Shown here: positions 16,241 through 54,112 of the stretch, in pieces
Layout: the number at the start of each line of letters is the position of its first letter
Numbering within the stretch: position 1 is the stretch's first letter
Position numbers and translations under genes: made by a program
Source of the DNA: an uncultured virus (IMG/VR IMGVR_UViG_3300009105_000005)
Taxonomy: Duplodnaviria; Heunggongvirae; Uroviricota; Caudoviricetes
Reading direction: 5' to 3' (one strand)
Virus record (IMG/VR): IMGVR_UViG_3300009105_000005
Location: 1 to 64,000 of that record
DNA length: 64,000 nucleotides
Notes under the pieces: model-generated
What the model was told of the DNA's origin: nothing
What the model saw: only the letters and a program-made list of their open reading frames with translations
Database searches by the model: none

Positions 16241-16804
16241 ATGTTCCGAAGACCTGTTCATCCTTCCAAAATGCACGAAATTATAGAGCGCCGTGTGAAG
16301 GTAAGTGAGCTATTTAAAAAGAGATATAAACATTATGAAATAGCCCAAATGCTCGGCGTTGATCGTTCCACAATTACCAAAGACATAAAAGCGATCCAAA
16401 AAGAATGGAAAGCCGAAGCTCTCGATAATTTACATATAGTAAGATTACGGGAGCTTGCCGATTTGGATGACATGGAACGAATTTGCATCGAAAGATTGGA
16501 AAAATTAGCAAAAAATCCACATCAGGGATCACGCTGGATGGAAGAACGCCGGAAGATCAAAGAACGCCGATCAAAACTGCTCGGCCTGGATGCAGAGCAA
16601 AAAATGAGCGTTAAGCGTGAGCTGACCATTATCACCAAGGAAAAACGCGACCAAGTTGTTTTAGCTGCTCTTGGTAACCGGCTTCCGGAAGGCATTGAGT
16701 ACAATCCTAAAATTGGTTTTACCGGAGATGCAATCGATGTGGAATTTGAGGAAATAAAATCTTCTAATGGAAATAGCGACACAACCCACACAGCAGCAGC
16801 TTAA
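16241..16804 (+). CDS. terS: Terminase small subunit (HTH)
   Basis: HTH YEIAQMLGVDRSTITKD and RRSKLLGLDA motif. Overlaps the terL start. Confidence 0.75.
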   Translation: MFRRPVHPSKMHEIIERRVKVSELFKKRYKHYEIAQMLGVDRSTITKDIKAIQKEWKAEALDNLHIVRLRELADLDDMERICIERLEKLAKNPHQGSRWMEERRKIKERRSKLLGLDAEQKMSVKRELTIITKEKRDQVVLAALGNRLPEGIEYNPKIGFTGDAIDVEFEEIKSSNGNSDTTHTAAA

Positions 16805-19319
16805 CAGGTTGCGATCGCTACCTGTTGAAGATTTGGCGTTTTCCAATCTGCTTGCTTATGCCGCATTGATGTATAACGACTATCAAGTTGCTCCGCATAT
16901 TGAGTATGTAGCACAGCATTTAATGGCCGTTGAGCGGGGGGACATAACAAGATTAATGATCTTTATGCCGCCCCGCCACGGCAAACAACTTGCTGATAAT
17001 ACTGATATTTTAACAACACTTGGGTGGAAAAAGCATGGTGACTTAAAAATTGGAGATTTTGTTTTTGGAATTAATGGCCGCCCTGTGCGCATAAATTGGA
17101 TTGCTCCGAAAACCCTTGCTACGCTTGAGATTGAATTTACTAATGGAACCAAAATTAAATGTCATAAAAATCATGAATGGACTGTATGGGATAGGACGAA
17201 AAACGCATTTGCTACTTATGAAACAAAATATTTTATTTCGACTACAAAGTTCGGTGAACAGCGCAAATTAGAAAGTGCTGGGCGTTTTATATATCAACTT
17301 TCGCTAATTGATCCTATTGAATTCCCTGATGCAAAACTTCCCATACATCCGTATGTCTTGGGCGCATGGCTTGGTGATGGTAATTCGGATAGAGCACGAA
17401 TATGTGCAGCTCCTAAAGATTCTGCCGTTTTGGATCATATAGAAAAGTGTGGATACCTTAAAACCACTTGTACGATTCATAAAACTACTGGCGTGTTGTA
17501 CCAAAATTATTCCAGAGAACTTAAACTTGCATTAAAGAAGAATAAACTTCTAAACAATAAACATATTCCAGATATTTACCAAAGAGCATCTGTTAAACAA
17601 AGACTTCAGCTACTTGCAGGCTTAATTGATACTGATGGAAGTGTTGATAAGGATTCACGTGTGCGCATTGTTACTGGAGATTCAGTTTTAGCACGCAATA
17701 TCATCGAGCTTGTGCAATCGTTTGGTTGGCATGTTTGCAATTCTAAAATTGCGCCAACAACCTCAAGTTCTGGAATCATTGGAAAAAAAAAGATAAGCTA
17801 TATTGGATTTCAGCCAACATTGAATATCCCGGTCTGTCTTAAACGTAAAAAAATTATCAGGTATGCACTGCGCAGAAGAACATCGATTAAATCTATTACA
17901 CCATGCATACCTGAACCTGGACACTCAATTAGCGTAGAGAGCGAAGATGGCCTATATCTTGTTGGTCGCAAATTAGTTCCAACACACAACACAATGCTGA
18001 CGAGTGAATTTTTTCCTGCATGGTTTTTGGGAAGAAATCCTCAGAAACAAATAATTGCTGCTACTTATTCTTTTGAGCGTGCCGGTGATGTTGGCCGGAA
18101 AGTCAGGAACCAAGCTATTGACCAGACTTATTCTGAAATTTTTCCTGACTGTGAAATATCAAGCGATTCCAAAAGCGCCAACAAACTCGGAACTCTGCAA
18201 GGCGGTAATTATTTTAGCGTTGGTGTCGGCGGAGCAACTGTCGGACGTGGAGCGCATCTGTTTTTAATAGACGATCCTATTAAAAGCAGGGCTGATGCTG
18301 AAAGCGAAGTTGTACAGCGTAAGCTTAGGGAATGGTATCAATCGGTTGCATATACGAGATTAATGCCGGGGAAAAGCGGTATTATTCTTATTATGACCCG
18401 ATGGAGTTACTACGATCTAGCCGGCTATCTGCTTGAAGAACAAAAGCACGAAGGTTGGGTAACTATCGATTTGCCAGCGATCGCAGAAGGCCCGGATGAA
18501 ATCGGCAGGGAAAGAGATCAGGCATTATGGCCGGATGCTTACGATGTTCCGGTGTTGCGAAATATTAAAAAAGCAGTTGGTACAAGAGAATGGAATTCCC
18601 AATATCAGCAAAGACCGCTTCCCGAAGAAGGTGGGATGGTCAAGCTTGATTGGTTTAAAAGATACAGCTTTAGAGAACACAGAGACCTTGAAGTTAATTC
18701 AAGGCAAACCATGACAGAAAAGGAACGGGTTAAACTTCTTGCTGAAAAAACAGCAAACCGAATGCTTGGCGAAAAACAATTCGGATCACGGAAGTTCGTT
18801 AAAATCGTTGCGTCATGGGATACGGCGTTTAAAGAATCTCAGCTTGCAGACCCTTCAGCCTGTACTATATGGGGCGTTACTAATGACAATCTTTATTATC
18901 TGCTTTGGGTTGTTAATAAGCGACTTGAATTTCCGGAGCTTGTCAAAGAAGCCATCAGAGTCCATGAACGCAACAAAAAACATTTTAATTTTACCACAGG
19001 GCAGTGTCCTGTCCTGGTTGAAGATAGGGCCAGCGGTCAGAGTTTAATTCAGGAATTAAAACGATACACCAATATTCCTGTTATTGCGATCAAGGCCGAT
19101 GCCAATAAACAAGTTCGGCTTAGTGAAGTAACCGCAATCATCGAGGCCGGCCGTGTGTATTTACCGGAACAATCAGCGTGGCTTGTTGATTACGAAACAC
19201 AGCTTTGCCAATTCCCGTTCTCCAAGCATGACGATATGGTGGATGCGACTTCCCAATTTCTCAGGTGGGTCGGGAAACCTAAATTCGTGAAAAGTAAGAA
19301 AAAACAGTATTGGAAATAG
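16767..19319 (+). CDS. terL: Terminase large subunit containing an intein
   Basis: MPPRHGK|T Walker A split by the intein. LIDDPIK Walker B, SWDTAFK and HDDMVDA nuclease motifs. Confidence 0.95.
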   Translation: MEIATQPTQQQLNRLRSLPVEDLAFSNLLAYAALMYNDYQVAPHIEYVAQHLMAVERGDITRLMIFMPPRHGKQLADNTDILTTLGWKKHGDLKIGDFVFGINGRPVRINWIAPKTLATLEIEFTNGTKIKCHKNHEWTVWDRTKNAFATYETKYFISTTKFGEQRKLESAGRFIYQLSLIDPIEFPDAKLPIHPYVLGAWLGDGNSDRARICAAPKDSAVLDHIEKCGYLKTTCTIHKTTGVLYQNYSRELKLALKKNKLLNNKHIPDIYQRASVKQRLQLLAGLIDTDGSVDKDSRVRIVTGDSVLARNIIELVQSFGWHVCNSKIAPTTSSSGIIGKKKISYIGFQPTLNIPVCLKRKKIIRYALRRRTSIKSITPCIPEPGHSISVESEDGLYLVGRKLVPTHNTMLTSEFFPAWFLGRNPQKQIIAATYSFERAGDVGRKVRNQAIDQTYSEIFPDCEISSDSKSANKLGTLQGGNYFSVGVGGATVGRGAHLFLIDDPIKSRADAESEVVQRKLREWYQSVAYTRLMPGKSGIILIMTRWSYYDLAGYLLEEQKHEGWVTIDLPAIAEGPDEIGRERDQALWPDAYDVPVLRNIKKAVGTREWNSQYQQRPLPEEGGMVKLDWFKRYSFREHRDLEVNSRQTMTEKERVKLLAEKTANRMLGEKQFGSRKFVKIVASWDTAFKESQLADPSACTIWGVTNDNLYYLLWVVNKRLEFPELVKEAIRVHERNKKHFNFTTGQCPVLVEDRASGQSLIQELKRYTNIPVIAIKADANKQVRLSEVTAIIEAGRVYLPEQSAWLVDYETQLCQFPFSKHDDMVDATSQFLRWVGKPKFVKSKKKQYWK
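16986..17990 (+). mobile_element. Intein (335 aa) with LAGLIDADG homing endonuclease; Gln1, class-3-like
   Basis: Starts QLADNTDILTTLGW, has block B HKNHEW, LGAWLGDG and LAGLIDTDG, and ends LVPTHN/T. Confidence 0.9.
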
Positions 19320-30578: not shown

Positions 30579-32267
30579 TTAAGAATCTTTTAAGATTTCT
30601 TCGGGAACAATGCCGGCCAGATCAGTTCCGGATTTAATAAGCAAATCGATCAACTCGCCCTTTTTGCAAACTTCAAAGCTGCCGTTACCAAGAGTTTGCC
30701 CCAGGTAGTCCTTAATTTCCGGACGTTCTGCAATCTTGAACTTATCATCGTTGAGCAGAGTGATGATTTCAGCTTTTTGTTTCTTTTTAAGGAAATCTTC
30801 GGTTATCATCCATTCTGCTTGAAGATCAACACCGACAAGATCAGCAATTTTGAAACGGCCGCTTGCTGAAAATCCTGAACTCATAATGGTTTCAACTGCC
30901 GTGGTTTGCAGAAGTTGTTTAACCGAACTAATGTCCAGGCCATTGACAAAATCAACGATGTCCTTGTCGCCCATACGGAACCATTTGCTTCCGCCAAGCT
31001 TGAAATCTTCATTGAGCTTTTCATGTAGTTCCGGCCTGGCGCTGATGATGGCAATTAAAGACAGCCGATAGGACTTTTCATTGTTCGACTTGATGGCCTG
31101 AATCTTTTTTGGAATAGATGTTTCAAAATGAATTTCCCGAAACTCAACGCCATGCTTTTGAGAACGTTGCTGTGTACGTTCCTTTTTAGCCTGCATATCC
31201 AGAGTAGCTTGGGCCTGTGGGTCTTTCGGAGCCTGTTTTTCTTTAGCGTTGAAACAACTTTCTTCACCGAAGCAAGCTTTTTGCGCCCATACGCTTCCGT
31301 CCAGCCGGATAACGGACTTAAAATAATCGCAAGAAGCGCATTTTTCCTTTAAACTGCCGTCACCAAATCCGAATTCCCTGTAAGCATCCCTGTCAACCTG
31401 TTCGTTGAACTCAAACCCTGTAGTTTTATGGTCCTTATAATAACCAGTTTTTTTCCAGTGCTTTGTTAGATGTTCTCCTTGCTTTTCAGCAAAGCAGTCC
31501 GGCTTCAAACAGCTCATATTTTCGATATCATCTTTGGCGAATAAAGACTTCTGAATGTCCGAATTATGAGGACATTGCGTACAGCCAGCTTCTTTGGTTT
31601 TGAATTTAGCATTTTTGAGCTGAGGTGAAAAATTATTGATCGAACGGCGAAGTTGATCTACGCTGGTTTTGCGTCCATAACTTTCATGGTCATCAACCAT
31701 TTCATTAAACAGCTTCAAAGCAACACTCGGTTCAATACGAATAAATTGTTCCAGATGACCATAACTAAGAAAACCTTTGTTCCATGCCTGGAGGACTTTC
31801 TTTGGAAGTTCCAGTACCTTAATCCGTTTTTGAACATACGGTGCCGGCTTCCCACAGCGGTCGGCAATAACGTTGATGTCGGCGTCTTCAACGTTGTCAA
31901 TATACCTTTTGAACCCTTCGGCTTCTTCCAAAGGCGTCAGATCGTCCCGTTGAATATTTTCAGTCAGCATGAACTCAATGGCTTGATCGTCCGTCATTTC
32001 ACGAACCAATGCGGGAATTTGAAGCTCTTTCACTCCGCCGTTGCCCTTAGCGGCTTTCTTAGCAGCCTTGATACGCCGTTCACCGGCAATCAATTCGTAA
32101 TCCTTGCCATTTGGCCTTAAAAGAACCGGTTGCAAAATGCCCTGTGTTTTGATCGATTCAACAAGTTCATCAAAGTCCGGCCCCTTGAATCGCCCTCTAC
32201 CCCTGACATTAAAACCCTTAACGATGTTAATGTCGGCAAATAATACGTGCTTTAATTCTTCCGTCAT
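30579..32267 (-). CDS. ParB/Spo0J family protein with Cys-rich C-terminal extension
   Basis: SIKTQGILQPVLLR, LIAGERR and ENIQRDDLTPLEEA. Start moved to MTEELK (RBS AAGGAG). Confidence 0.9.
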   Translation of the reverse strand: MTEELKHVLFADINIVKGFNVRGRGRFKGPDFDELVESIKTQGILQPVLLRPNGKDYELIAGERRIKAAKKAAKGNGGVKELQIPALVREMTDDQAIEFMLTENIQRDDLTPLEEAEGFKRYIDNVEDADINVIADRCGKPAPYVQKRIKVLELPKKVLQAWNKGFLSYGHLEQFIRIEPSVALKLFNEMVDDHESYGRKTSVDQLRRSINNFSPQLKNAKFKTKEAGCTQCPHNSDIQKSLFAKDDIENMSCLKPDCFAEKQGEHLTKHWKKTGYYKDHKTTGFEFNEQVDRDAYREFGFGDGSLKEKCASCDYFKSVIRLDGSVWAQKACFGEESCFNAKEKQAPKDPQAQATLDMQAKKERTQQRSQKHGVEFREIHFETSIPKKIQAIKSNNEKSYRLSLIAIISARPELHEKLNEDFKLGGSKWFRMGDKDIVDFVNGLDISSVKQLLQTTAVETIMSSGFSASGRFKIADLVGVDLQAEWMITEDFLKKKQKAEIITLLNDDKFKIAERPEIKDYLGQTLGNGSFEVCKKGELIDLLIKSGTDLAGIVPEEILKDS

Positions 32268-32326
32268 GTGGTAAATCTCCTTTTTAAAATTATAGTTACA
32301 CGGCAAATTTCTTGCCGTGAAAACAA

Positions 32327-37911: not shown

Positions 37912-37990
37912 TGGCAGTCCAGACGGGATTTGAACCCGCGATCTTCGGCGTGACAGGCCGACGTGATAGACCAGACTTCACTACTGGACT
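37912..37990 (-). tRNA. tRNA-Asp(GTC)
   Basis: AGTCCAG/CTGGACT acceptor, TCGGC CTGTCAC GCCGA anticodon arm, GGTTCAAATCC, encoded CCA. Confidence 0.95.
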
Positions 37991-38154
37991 ATAAAACTGT
38001 TTTCTTTGGTCTAAAACTCCGTCTCTCCGGAGTGTCACCCTTTTGTTCTCGCCACACTTCCTTGATAGGATCATTGAACGAATTTTTCGAACTCCCCGTA
38101 CCTCATGGTCTGGACACAATCAGGTCAAAGCACTTAGGCCAAAGAAAACAAAAG

Positions 38155-38228
38155 TGACGCGTACGGGATTTGAACCCGTGAATACCGGCGTGAAAGACCG
38201 GTGTGTTCGACCGCTTCACCAACGCGCC
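38155..38228 (-). tRNA. tRNA-Glu(TTC)
   Basis: GGCGCGT/ACGCGTC acceptor, CCGGT CTTTCAC GCCGG anticodon arm, GGTTCAAATCC. No encoded CCA. Confidence 0.93.
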
Positions 38229-38268: not shown

Positions 38269-38701
38269 AAAATCGCTGAACAAGATTGGTTTTCTTCTTC
38301 TTTCTGACCCACTACTGCTCGTTGGATTTCTTGTAAGGATTGATTCGCTAACAAATGACTGGATTACTCTCACCTCCTGGCACGCTATTTGACAATGGAT
38401 TTCTTTGTCCTCCTGACTCGCTATATTGTGCTGGTTTGCTTACACCAAATGACTCGCTAAATTATGTTGGGTTAATTTTTCCATAGACTCGCTGTGGTAA
38501 ATTGGGTTTCTCCCCCTTTCTGGCACACTTCAAACTTATTGGATTTCTAACCCTTTCTGATCCACTACTTTAATCTGGTTTTCTTGCCAGGGACGGTACG
38601 CTAAAGATGTCAGGGTTTCTGTATATCGATGACTCGCTACAAGATGTTGGATTTCTTAATGCCAATGACTCGCTATGACACTTAGGGTTACTAACGGACT
38701 T
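38269..38701 (-). repeat. TIGR-like guide RNA array, 12 units of ~36 nt
   Basis: Alternating 9-nt repeats (sense AGCGAGTCA and AGAAAYCCA) separated by unique 8-10-nt spacers. Second-type repeats start at 38287, 38323, 38360, 38396, 38432, 38468, 38503, 38540, 38576, 38612, 38648 and 38684. Confidence 0.9.
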
Positions 38702-39569
38702 AAGCAGCCTTCTTATGCTCCATGCCAAGCTTGGCCTCACTGTATTCAACTGAAACAGGTAAACCCTCAATCGCACGCCACGCAATATGCAGATCCACAA
38801 GAAAACGCTTCACCGCATACCGCAAAGCCATACGATGACGATGCATTTTGGTCTTTTCTTGATGGTCCGGATGATTCTCAAGACGATTCTTGTAATCATA
38901 ATAAGTCTTGGCATAATTAGACCGATCCGGCCCCAATCTCAAAAATGAAGTCCCAAGAACACCAAGCAACTTCGTCTTTAAAAACGGATTGAACGTTATG
39001 CTGTTTCGAAGCTTGGCCTCCCCGTCAGCAGCTTTATATTCAACCTCAATAAGATGCTCCTTGCGCTTACTCCGACCCTTGCCGTCCTCAGCAACGTCCA
39101 AACCCGCATACTTCCACAGTGAGGACGGATACTCCGCCTTTTCGATGTCAATCTCCGAAATAATCACACCGGCCATAGCGGGGCCCACGCCCTTAACCGA
39201 CTCCAAATACTTCGTCCAAAGCGGAAATTCAGCCAATATACCCTCTAATTGCTTAAAATGACGCTTCTCCGATTCCTCAAGTCCAATGTACTGAGAAATC
39301 AAAGCAAATTCCGTGTATGACGAAATAACACCCTCGGCCTTAAATTTCTTCCGGTTCGGCAAACTCAAAACACCGTCAGTAATCTTCCGAAAAGCAGCCC
39401 GAATGTCTTCCATGATCCGCTTACCTTCCTTGTCAAGCTCATCTTCCTTCTGACTCGGATCCAAACCCAACTTGGCCCTAAAGTTGGCAACCAACCGATT
39501 GCCAGTCTGAATTCTTAATTTCTGAACGGTATAACAACCCCGAACCATAGTCTTTAAATACTGTTTCAT
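38700..39569 (-). CDS. tasA: TasA-like RNA-binding protein (IS110 C-terminal / Nop-like fold, no nuclease domain)
   Basis: QKLRIQTGNRL coiled coil, VKGVGP..AGVIISEI, SSLWKYAGL, NPFLKTKL and HRMALRYAVKRFL. No RuvC or HNH. The array abuts its stop codon. Confidence 0.85.
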   Translation of the reverse strand: MKQYLKTMVRGCYTVQKLRIQTGNRLVANFRAKLGLDPSQKEDELDKEGKRIMEDIRAAFRKITDGVLSLPNRKKFKAEGVISSYTEFALISQYIGLEESEKRHFKQLEGILAEFPLWTKYLESVKGVGPAMAGVIISEIDIEKAEYPSSLWKYAGLDVAEDGKGRSKRKEHLIEVEYKAADGEAKLRNSITFNPFLKTKLLGVLGTSFLRLGPDRSNYAKTYYDYKNRLENHPDHQEKTKMHRHRMALRYAVKRFLVDLHIAWRAIEGLPVSVEYSEAKLGMEHKKAA

Positions 39570-39859: not shown

Positions 39860-40025
39860 TTAGATATCTCCTTTTTGTAATTCTTACTATTAGTAACAAA
39901 TAATTATAAAAAAGCAAGTGTTATTTTCATATTCATAACAATTTTATAATATTTTTTAAAATTCCCTTGACATCTTAATAACTTTTATGATCGGTTTTTA
40001 TAAAAATATTCTTTGGAGGAATTTT

Positions 40026-40454
40026 ATGCGGAAAATTACTACTATAATAATTATGTTGATGTTAATTTTAGCTGGATGCGGCAGCAGCACATTAAAACAA
40101 AGCTCCGCTAATCCCAATATTAGTAAATTCAAAGTGGCCGGAGACTACCAGAACGTTTATCGTGACCTGCTGGAAAAAACCGTAAATTGCTTTGCTCGAT
40201 CAGCAATTCCAATGCTGCGCCCGGGTAGCTACGTAGACGGAAACCTCTATCCAGACATTAAAGAAGGACATATTACCGTTTCCTCAGATTTTTGCGAATT
40301 ATTCGTTGTTCAAATTAGAAATGACGGAGATCAGGGGACTTTGGTTGTTAGTTATTATAAGACTGATAGGTGGTTAAAAAGAATCAGCCCTGTTATTATG
40401 GATTGGGTACAAAATAATATTGATAAATGTCCGGAATTAAAAGGTCCGATTTGA
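40026..40454 (+). CDS. Lipoprotein (moron-like; possible superinfection exclusion)
   Basis: RBS GGAGGA, signal peptide and lipobox LAGC. Lone plus-strand gene. Confidence 0.7.
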   Translation: MRKITTIIIMLMLILAGCGSSTLKQSSANPNISKFKVAGDYQNVYRDLLEKTVNCFARSAIPMLRPGSYVDGNLYPDIKEGHITVSSDFCELFVVQIRNDGDQGTLVVSYYKTDRWLKRISPVIMDWVQNNIDKCPELKGPI

Positions 40455-52134: not shown

Positions 52135-52206
52135 TATTTCGCTATCTTTCTGTGGGTTTCTTTTTTCACTTGGCTCGCTACCTCTCTTGGGGTTAATCAT
52201 GCCTAT
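52135..52206 (-). repeat. Two-unit TIGR-like mini-array overlapping the primase stop codon
   Basis: On +: tatttcgct-N9-tgggtttct-N9-tggctcgct-N9-ggggttaat. Confidence 0.65.
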
Positions 52207-54112
52207 CGGCGTTTCTTTTATCATCCAGATGTACCACGTCGGCTCCTTCGGATTCTGCCTGCGGTGCGGTGTTTAGTGTTCTTGATGGATCGATTATTGC
52301 TATGGGGACTTTCCAGCATTTAACTGAGGTTACTTTTTTATCGGTCTTTTTCCTGTAGCTGATACTTTTCTTTGATAACCCAAGGTCAAATTCCAATATT
52401 CGGAACAGGATTTCTCTTGGGTCTCGGTTGTTGCATGTTTGTCGGGTATAGGCATCGAACTGTATGGGGAACATGTACCAATTGCCTTTATGGATGAACG
52501 GTTGGTTGTCGGGCGCGCCTTCTTCGACTGGGTATTTTGGTCGGCTCTTGAGATACTTTTTTAGCCAGATTTTAACGATGCCGATTGCAGTACGCATTTC
52601 ATCGACAGGCACATCTTCAACTATTGACATGATAAGGTCTGCGAGTTTGTCATCCCATTCCTTTTTTGAGCATACGATTCTTTTTTTAATTAAGTTACCG
52701 ACTTGTTCTCTGAACTGGCGGAATTCCATTAGTTTATTTGAACTTCGGAATTCCGTTTTTTTATTATTGACAATCAGCCGGAACACTGGCGGATCTTCCG
52801 GGAAGCACAGAATTCTGATATCTTGAAAGCCAAGGCGTTTACAGACAGCTTTGCGGTTTTGGTCAATGTTTTGATAATCGGAGCCGGTAAGGTCGGCGGC
52901 GACATCTACGGCTTTTTGGGCTTCTTCGGTTTCGATCTTTGAGCGGGCATTGATGATCGTCCGGATGTACTTTTGTATATTGCTCAGGTGTAAGTCATGG
53001 CCGTGCTTACGCCTGAACGCAATCATGAGATCCATGATCTCTTGATCTGTCCAGTTGCATTGGGCTGCCATTAAAGCCAGTGTGAAATCGTAGCCCGAAG
53101 GTGATGTGTCGTTGAGTTCATCATCTCGGTCATTATTCCAGGTGTTTATAAATTCGGGTGCAAATATTTGGTTGATAGCGGCGAACTTTTCGAAGGACGG
53201 TTCAGCATTTTCGTTAAGTTCCAAGGTCTTTGATTTTTCTTTGATTTCCTGGGTTATATTTACGACCTTATTGGCGCTTGTATTTTTTGGTTTACTTTCC
53301 GAACAAGACTCGCTATCCGTAATAGGGTTGCTCGCTCCCCGTGGCTCGCTTTTCCCAAGTGGGTTGCTGGCGCTTGATGGCTCGCTGACGACTTCAGGGT
53401 TACTCTGGGTTATTGGCTCGCTATTTGAGATTAGGTTACTTGAGATGCTTGGCTCAATTTCAAGCAGGATTTCATCGAAATCATCCGGGTTGTATCTGAC
53501 TTTTTCGTTATACTGCAACACTGTGGCCATGACAGGGTCGCAGTTTTCTTTTTGATTGACTGTACCGATCGGACGCATTAGGCGGTCTAAATTAGAAGTG
53601 TTGTCGATTTCCCATCCTTTTTCATTGGCACGTTCTTTGATGGTGGCCTGTAGCCGGCGGGAAAGTCCCAAGGTTTCTGCCCATTCATCTTGGTCGTCAA
53701 ACATCAAGGGTTCTTTGAACAACCACCACGCCTGGAGTCCATGTCCGGAGTGCATGATTATGGTTGGGTCCCACCCATAACTTTCGATCAGTGAGCGTGC
53801 TTCTTCGATGGTTGCAGGCAGGTTTTTCTTTTTATGGGCGTGTTTATGCTGGACGTCTATATCGATGAAGAAGCCCGGGATGCCGTGAACTTGATCGACG
53901 GTCATTCTTTTATATTTGCCACGGTTTTGCCATGACATACCGGCGCAGATGTAGATATTTTGCTTACCTGCAATATAAGCGGCGGCTTCCAGGTGGCTTT
54001 GGAACCATTTGGACCGGCCTTGTTTTGGGTCGAGATCTTTTTCCCATGTTAAGATCCAGGTCCGATCATCTTTGAGGCCGAACAGTTGGTCTATAAATTG
54101 CTTAGTGTCCAT
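52193..54112 (-). CDS. Putative DNA primase / replication protein (RepB-like AEP N-terminal domain)
   Basis: FFIDIDV, SGHGLQAWW and RLMRPIGTVN. Helical domain D-x-SGYDF..W. Adjacent to the helicase. Confidence 0.75.
   Translation of the reverse strand: MDTKQFIDQLFGLKDDRTWILTWEKDLDPKQGRSKWFQSHLEAAAYIAGKQNIYICAGMSWQNRGKYKRMTVDQVHGIPGFFIDIDVQHKHAHKKKNLPATIEEARSLIESYGWDPTIIMHSGHGLQAWWLFKEPLMFDDQDEWAETLGLSRRLQATIKERANEKGWEIDNTSNLDRLMRPIGTVNQKENCDPVMATVLQYNEKVRYNPDDFDEILLEIEPSISSNLISNSEPITQSNPEVVSEPSSASNPLGKSEPRGASNPITDSESCSESKPKNTSANKVVNITQEIKEKSKTLELNENAEPSFEKFAAINQIFAPEFINTWNNDRDDELNDTSPSGYDFTLALMAAQCNWTDQEIMDLMIAFRRKHGHDLHLSNIQKYIRTIINARSKIETEEAQKAVDVAADLTGSDYQNIDQNRKAVCKRLGFQDIRILCFPEDPPVFRLIVNNKKTEFRSSNKLMEFRQFREQVGNLIKKRIVCSKKEWDDKLADLIMSIVEDVPVDEMRTAIGIVKIWLKKYLKSRPKYPVEEGAPDNQPFIHKGNWYMFPIQFDAYTRQTCNNRDPREILFRILEFDLGLSKKSISYRKKTDKKVTSVKCWKVPIAIIDPSRTLNTAPQAESEGADVVHLDDKRNADRHD
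53270..53458 (-). repeat. Five-unit TIGR-like array in frame inside the primase CDS
   Basis: Sense AGCGAGCCA and AGYAACCCW alternate with exact 9-nt spacers. Encodes SEP-xxx-SNP-xxx. Confidence 0.85.

Follow-up and report, generated by a model that had tools for sequence, protein, structure and literature searches.

In TIGR-Tas systems the two spacers of a guide pair with opposite strands, on adjacent halves of an 18-bp site, and a cut at spacer position five produces 3′ overhangs of 8 nt (Faure 2025, PMC12045711). The repeats described there start with UG (box D) and end with CCA (box C), and divergent motifs covary between both repeats. The same source suggests TasA as a possible block to transcription or replication, and in the September 2026 preprint of Xu et al. 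(10.64898/2026.09.09.750476) MbTasA and dead TasR proteins conferred RNA-guided, reversible repression of transcription in E. coli. The natural targets of TIGR spacers are named as an open problem in both sources and, according to Xu et al., cannot yet be determined. A full-text literature search found no mention of the Shine-Dalgarno (SD) sequence or of translation initiation in TIGR-Tas papers. The repressor idea for TasA is already in print, whereas natural guides aimed at gene starts, a proposal that comes from the one array described here, are not; the proposal remains a lead.

The array lies in a window of 64,000 nt, comprising positions 1 to 64,000 of IMG/VR record IMGVR_UViG_3300009105_000005, from an uncultured virus of the Caudoviricetes. 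Judged by its sequence and by the modelled fold of its protein, the locus is a genuine phage TIGR-TasA system and an ordinary member of the known family. It resembles the dual-repeat TIGR-TasA of Flavonifractor plautii (FpTasA; PMC12045711) in having a solo Nop-type Tas on a phage carrier and, as described for FpTasA-type loci, a downstream array on the same strand, built from 36-nt units (edge, 9-nt spacer A, loop, 9-nt spacer B) with truncated 5′ and 3′ edges. Unlike the dual-repeat loci in that description, it has additional units within a primase gene and just after it, and roughly half of the guides in its main array are start-like.

With MbTasA and the dead TasR proteins of the preprint (10.64898/2026.09.09.750476) the system would share nuclease-free, RNA-guided DNA binding, with repression shown there and proposed here. 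Those dead TasR proteins are described as stem-loop-binding, whereas the present system is dual-repeat, and the preprint's proteins were tested with designed guides, whereas here it is natural guides that suggest a class of target, from sequence alone. A DNA roadblock without cleavage, carried on a mobile element, has further parallels in dCas9 CRISPRi and in natural non-cutting CRISPR (type IV and type V-M, both cited in Faure 2025). The present system differs from these in its unrelated protein, its 18-bp bipartite site read on both strands and its lack of a PAM, and from CRISPR systems in that no spacer-acquisition machinery is known for TIGR.

The phage and its TasA protein

The 74,264-base record is a fragment, corresponding in reverse orientation to bases 1-74264 of a viral contig of 91,194 bases with an estimated completeness of 93%; the 16.9 kb of this contig that precede window position 1 were retrieved for analysis. 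Phage genes in the window encode tail, tape-measure, tube, terminase, capsid, ParB, helicase, ligase and methylase functions. The phage is present in marine and seawater metagenome runs, no close relative of it was found in the INPHARED phage collection, and a protein atlas searched for a clue to the host returned viral clusters only.

The sequence-only reading had called the protein encoded beside the array a nuclease-less Tas, and Pfam, alignment to TasR and TasH in the PDB, AlphaFold and Foldseek all agree with that description. The sole Pfam match is a weak one to PF02371 (IS110-type C-terminal; E 5e-6), and no nuclease family (RuvC, HNH) was found by Pfam at E ≤ 0.01; among PHROGs the protein matches 4285, ‘transposase’ (E 8e-34). 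Sequence matches in the PDB are to TIGR-TasR (9mty, E 2e-8) and TasH (E 1.3e-6), residue 15 aligning to residue 124 of the TasR chain. The alignment thus starts ~110 residues into TasR, from which it follows that TasA lacks the nuclease domain. In the AlphaFold model (pLDDT 82.6) the N-terminus consists of long helices, and the ten best Foldseek matches in the PDB are all TasH or TasR complexes with tigRNA (probability 1.00), with IS621 recombinases next. The protein accordingly shares its RNA-binding fold with IS621, the weak PF02371 match being a further likeness; unlike IS621, it has no RuvC or recombinase domain, its locus has no transposon ends, and its guides form an array, not one bridge RNA. 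Across 25 homologues H245 is invariant and Y251 nearly so; a C-terminal Y/H loop, with a dyad in TasH, is described as processing pre-tigRNA in dual-repeat systems (preprint 10.64898/2026.09.09.750476). By sequence comparison and predicted structure, the product is TasA.

The TIGR array and its relatives

The spacers of the array run from 38701 down to 38278 on the minus strand, where the sequence-only reading had placed them (Table 1). Each unit consists of an edge repeat (type AGCGAGTCA), a 9-nt spacer A, a loop repeat (type AGAAATCCA) and a 9-nt spacer B, and measures 36 nt, except for u7 (35 nt); spacer B has 10 nt in u5 and u10. Edge and loop repeats both begin with AG and end with CCA or TCA, so that the box D/box C pattern is present in AG...CCA form, as it is in 786 units of related loci and unlike the UG start of the TasR arrays described in PMC12045711. 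Degeneracy is seen in several repeats: CCT closes the loops of u1 and u3, the edges preceding u4 and u7 end in CCG and TCT, respectively, and the loop of u7 begins with AT. The five units with SD-like spacers have canonical repeats. Both tasA and the array are identical, letter for letter, in two other viral contigs, and identical pieces of the array occur in contigs from two seawater studies (seawater and marine metagenome runs); these copies may represent one population.

Table 1. Positions of the features discussed, numbered along the window
Feature	Position	Strand	Description
tasA	38700-39569	-	289-aa Tas protein; Nop-type RNA-binding fold, without a nuclease domain
Dual-repeat TIGR array	38269-38710	-	12 units; degenerate 5′ edge overlaps the tasA stop codon; last edge 3′-truncated
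u5	38530-38557	-	spacer A 38549-38557, loop 38540-38548, spacer B 38530-38539
u6	38494-38520	-	spacer A 38512-38520, loop 38503-38511, spacer B 38494-38502
u7	38459-38484	-	spacer A 38477-38484 (8 nt), loop 38468-38476, spacer B 38459-38467
u9	38387-38413	-	spacer A 38405-38413, loop 38396-38404, spacer B 38387-38395
u10	38350-38377	-	spacer A 38369-38377, loop 38360-38368, spacer B 38350-38359
u12	38278-38304	-	spacer A 38296-38304, loop 38287-38295, spacer B 38278-38286
Second TIGR array	53270-53422	-	4 units; in frame inside primase-like ORF 52193-54112
Solo TIGR unit	52135-52179	-	14 nt past the primase stop codon; target score P = 0.84
tRNA-Glu	38154-38228	-	ARAGORN; directly downstream of the TIGR array, same strand
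tRNA-Asp	37912-37990	-	ARAGORN; after tRNA-Glu

A set of related loci was assembled for comparison. TasA homologues number 2479 at E ≤ 0.001, of 4007 candidates; 104 loci were fetched, in which 1137 units were parsed; 79 of the loci supplied the 853 distinct spacer pairs obtained. The 9+9 spacer layout holds in 1052 of the 1137 units, and all but one of them (1136/1137) lie on the tas strand, which settles the transcribed strand and thereby identifies spacer A. For scoring, 786 distinct 9+9 family units were used, the four loci of this phage being left out. In these units the spacers are purine-rich in A and B alike (A+G 58-61%, C 17-19%), so that a target read along one strand is expected to consist of a purine-rich half followed by a pyrimidine-rich half. 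The ninth spacer position, which adjoins the next repeat, has little C (6-10%) and much A (39-50%).

The primase-like ORF matches PHROG 2478 (DNA polymerase/primase), and frame 0 of the array embedded in it is free of stop codons and is translated as an SEP...SNP repeat linker. The primase-embedded unit that had been reported from the sequence is real, with spacer A at 53333-53341 and spacer B at 53315-53323 on the minus strand. Intragenic dual-repeat units are reported within tas genes in the preprint (10.64898/2026.09.09.750476), whereas the gene here is a primase, 13.6 kb from tasA.

Reconstruction of the targets

Targets had been reconstructed from the sequence by joining spacer A to the reverse complement of spacer B, A+rc(B), a geometry that was assumed. 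A derivation from the published cleavage pattern gives 3′ overhangs for A+rc(B) and 5′ overhangs for the opposite order; as the sole order that yields the published 3′ overhangs, A+rc(B) is supported as the target by inference from the paper’s text. Matching 791 family targets to 1.4 Mb of fetched DNA gave no informative signal on geometry.

The joined sequences of the sequence-only reading were reproduced, together with three that it had not listed (u4, u8 and u11), and its counts are correct: ATG occurs in the B half of five of the 12 units (u1, u2, u3, u7 and u10), three further B halves end in AT (u5, u6 and u12), and five A halves are SD-like and purine-rich (u5, u6, u9, u10 and u12). A full SD together with ATG is found within a single unit only in u10, whose target reads GGAGG, 9 nt, ATG (ATG at target positions 15-17; score 9.99, P = 0.0018), while that of u9 reads GGAGG, 6 nt, TTG (TTG at positions 12-14; score 8.48, P = 0.0084). 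Both u6, with a purine- and G-rich A half (score 9.97, P = 0.0019), and u12, with a purine-rich one (score 8.00, P = 0.0135), have AT at the target end. The A half of u5 opens with GAAAG and its target also ends in AT; its score of 3.92 (P = 0.26) means that u5 is not start-like individually. A unit with degenerate repeats, u7 carries ATG near the 3′ end of its target (score 8.67, P = 0.0074).

Likeness to translation starts

The resemblance of the reconstructed targets to translation-initiation regions was scored with a position weight matrix built from 117 start regions, 118 genes having been predicted in the 91-kb phage, whose starts show clear AGGAG-type SD motifs 7-10 nt upstream of ATG. 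The score is that of the best placement on either strand, in bits; the statistics were selected after the pattern had been seen. The 12 A+rc(B) targets average 5.71 bits, as compared with 2.72 bits for 20,000 random 18-mers of the phage (none of 100,000 resamples of 12 reaches 5.71) and 5.27 bits for the phage’s real start windows (-16 to +2). Shuffling the letters within targets or within halves lowers the mean to 3.93-4.00 bits (P < 0.001), other joining geometries of the 12 units give 3.80-4.32 bits, and the 786 family units average 3.06 bits, the probability that 12 such units reach 5.71 being 8e-5. The likeness proposed from the sequence is thus borne out statistically.

Five of the 12 units score above 6.42 bits, the 95th percentile for random 18-mers, and four of them above the 99th, as against 7.0% of family units above the same 95th percentile. 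These five (u6, u7, u9, u10 and u12) all lie above the 98th percentile of random 18-mers (P 0.002-0.014), each with its best placement on the A+rc(B) strand and a window that starts 11-16 nt before the modelled start codon. The remaining 7 main-array units and all five primase-associated units are not start-like, the targets of the embedded array giving P 0.37-0.82. The array tops all 47 other arrays with at least 8 units on each measure, the best of these averaging 4.83 bits. A spacer start of GAAAG or GGAGG is seen in 5 of 12 units here and in 2 of 786 family units, a start-like 3′ edge in 7 of 12 as against 12.1% of family units, and the first five positions of spacer A are purines throughout in 5 of 12 as against 7.3% of the family. 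The guide set is thus statistically credibly, and unusually, like gene starts, with the signal carried by five of its 12 units.

Pairing contributes less clearly to this signal. When the A and B halves of the 12 units are mis-paired by shuffling, the mean is 5.05 ± 0.43 bits; true pairings score only marginally higher (P = 0.067), a borderline result in the comparison with shuffled pairs that the sequence-only reading had proposed. Since shuffled pairings score nearly as high, the signal resides in each half separately. Neither are the SD-like spacers independent of one another: they fall into two look-alike groups, three with GAAAG starts, each following a variant AGTG edge, and two with GGAGG starts, and the effective sample is consequently smaller than five independent events. 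The k-mers shared among the 12 targets exceed those of letter shuffles (P ~0.014) and are no commoner than among the phage’s real starts; an 8-mer common to u10 and u12 crosses the A/B joint in a different phase in each. In the family as a whole the units show no start bias, and ATG turns up less often in rc(B) (7.6%) than in B (16.2%); judged at least by the start model of this phage, gene-start targeting is thus no general trait of the family.

Search for targets

TIGR spacers are too short for reliable target searches. The earlier statement that the window holds no full match to any target is correct. Over the 74-kb record the best self-match has 3 mismatches, at one site, the other sites listed having 4; the extra 16.9 kb adds two sites with 3 mismatches, and no site with ≤ 2 mismatches occurs anywhere in the 91 kb. 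There are 50 relaxed self-matches (at least 8/9 in one half and at least 6/9 in the other), compared with 33 and 49 for the controls, and none of the 50 falls at a predicted start. The u8 target matches an SD-ATG site at 40012-40029 (plus strand) in 14 of 18 positions, the ATG at 40026 being in frame in ORF 39987-40454, which is divergent from the tasA operon; this partial match is at chance level and is the only one on a start-like site of the phage itself.

Exact scans of IMG/VR (gap 0-2) covered six of the 12 targets (u1, u5, u6, u9, u10 and u12). For u10 there are 11 matches, all on an ATG that opens an ORF (42-466 aa) and all in unrelated genes, and for u9 nine, with the TTG opening an ORF of at least 102 aa in six; both sequences therefore occur naturally as gene starts. 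The genes are unrelated, however, no contig holds a second target, and such matches are what any start-like sequence would give. There is one match for u6, there are six for u5, and none for u1. The 61 matches of u12 reflect a common low-complexity sequence that is partly coding; in a group of 8 contigs the match is a coding one, within a 179-aa ORF. A gap-1 match of u12 in 22 short viral contigs, forming one widespread group, lies at a conserved gene junction, where a 91-aa ORF ends and a 201-aa ORF opens with its ATG, and no second target was found within 3 kb of this junction in the 22 contigs. Likewise, none was found in the flanks of the u10, u6, u9 and u12 matches (396,705 bases), in those of the six u5 matches, or in five whole u10 contigs.

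A metagenome scan of u6 gave 49 matches in unrelated contigs, seven of them gap-0; two of these seven are followed by G, with ORFs of 14 and 2 aa. The G predicted to follow targets that end in AT is not enriched in exact matches, being present in 0/6 for u5, 4/17 for gap-0 u12 and 2/7 for gap-0 u6. The u10 target has no match with ≤ 1 mismatch in 401 Gammaproteobacteria genomes, and five MAGs with TasA homologues likewise gave no match. The proposal that the system is a natural CRISPRi-like repressor of host or competitor gene starts is thus upheld in its premises, a nuclease-free Tas and start-like guides, with repression known for other TasA, and not in its targets, none of which emerged from IMG/VR (six targets), metagenomes (one) or the 401 genomes (one).

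Interpretation

The account considered most plausible, though held tentatively, is RNA-guided silencing at the 5′ ends of genes by the phage TasA. By analogy with published work on other Tas proteins, the array would be transcribed with tasA and cut into tigRNAs of ~36 nt, and a TasA dimer would bind an 18-bp site without cutting, with spacer A on one strand and spacer B on the other. To judge from the guides, the site would begin at an SD-like purine block in five units, and in three of those five would end at a start codon or on its first two letters. The system would then most likely be aimed at the 5′ ends of particular host or rival-phage genes, where the bound complex would block RNA polymerase in a CRISPRi-like manner; changes to the SD or start codon would themselves harm expression of the target gene. 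The targets of u1-u4, u8, u11 and the five units associated with the primase would be of other kinds. A stronger version, in which the 18-bp windows span exactly the stretch from SD block to start codon of chosen host or rival genes and the array is a natural multi-gene silencer, seems unlikely; were it true, it would offer a first clue to the natural targets of TIGR arrays.

Guides that bear a functional signature (SD block, spacer and start codon, in one register and orientation) give a testable idea of the role of TasA in phages, the silencing of particular genes at their 5′ ends, and a gene-start signature suggests that targets be sought by class instead of through exact matches. Should this idea prove wrong, the locus would simply join the thousands of other TasA arrays.

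A serious possibility, though one we rate as short of probable, is that the array is a working TasA guide set whose likeness to gene starts is incidental, its real targets being ordinary sites in rival mobile elements. The purine richness of both spacers throughout the family favours this, as do the borderline pairing test and the fact that the scans revealed no target at a gene start in any plausible host or competitor. The two groups of SD-like spacers, with the GAAAG group always after the variant AGTG edge, would on this view reflect duplication, some ATGs having come to lie in B halves by chance, and the excess of shared k-mers fits relatedness between units; with the groups collapsed, ~3 of 9 units are start-like, for which a hand estimate at the family rate of 7% gives P ~0.02. 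Against an incidental likeness, letter order matters beyond composition (3.9-4.0 against 5.71 bits), the array stands above all 47 others of 8 or more units, the five high scorers share orientation and register, and the differing phase of the 8-mer in u10 and u12 is not what plain duplication of a unit would give.

That the array is a decaying remnant which no longer guides, its spacer content being without present function, is improbable. Several degenerate repeats, the 35-nt u7 and the detection of only 2.1 copies by Tandem Repeats Finder are compatible with decay, whereas the intact tasA, whose model matches solved Tas complexes, the canonical repeats of the five SD-like units, and the letter-identical array in three contigs and in pieces of seawater contigs (possibly one population) speak against it.

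Regulation of the phage’s own genes at their start regions, as part of the lytic programme, is very improbable: the phage’s starts share the SD-spacer-ATG style of the guides and the u8 match lies beside the tasA operon, and yet the absence of close self-matches in the 91 kb largely refutes the idea, the relaxed matches being at control level and none of them lying at a predicted start; with the genome estimated as 93% complete, a small part of it is unseen. That spacer B is antisense to an ATG-bearing sequence in five units and spacer A sense and SD-like in five would fit an action of the tigRNAs on RNA, with spacer B pairing to an mRNA start codon or spacer A titrating ribosomes as an RBS mimic. 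Such an action is equally hard to credit, given that both features combine in one unit only, that spacer A, being of the same sense as that mRNA, could not pair with it, that Tas complexes have been solved on double-stranded DNA, and that TasR is described as inactive on RNA substrates (Faure 2025, PMC12045711).

Neighbouring genes

Where the arrays of the published description end in a rho-independent terminator (Faure 2025, PMC12045711), two tRNA genes follow the present one, and tasA, the array and the tRNAs have no terminator-like site between them. Co-transcription with the tRNAs could couple tigRNA maturation to tRNA processing. On the same strand, 6 kb downstream of the array, lies a gene for a 575-aa protein with ParB_N and HTH_ParB domains (30579-32306, minus strand); ParB homologues are described as sometimes sharing operons with TasA loci (Faure 2025, PMC12045711). 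Elsewhere in the window, the 850-aa large terminase (16767-19319, plus strand) has LAGLIDADG/Hom_end matches at residues 275-328, a stretch that separates its N- and C-terminal domains and resembles an intein or a homing-endonuclease insertion.
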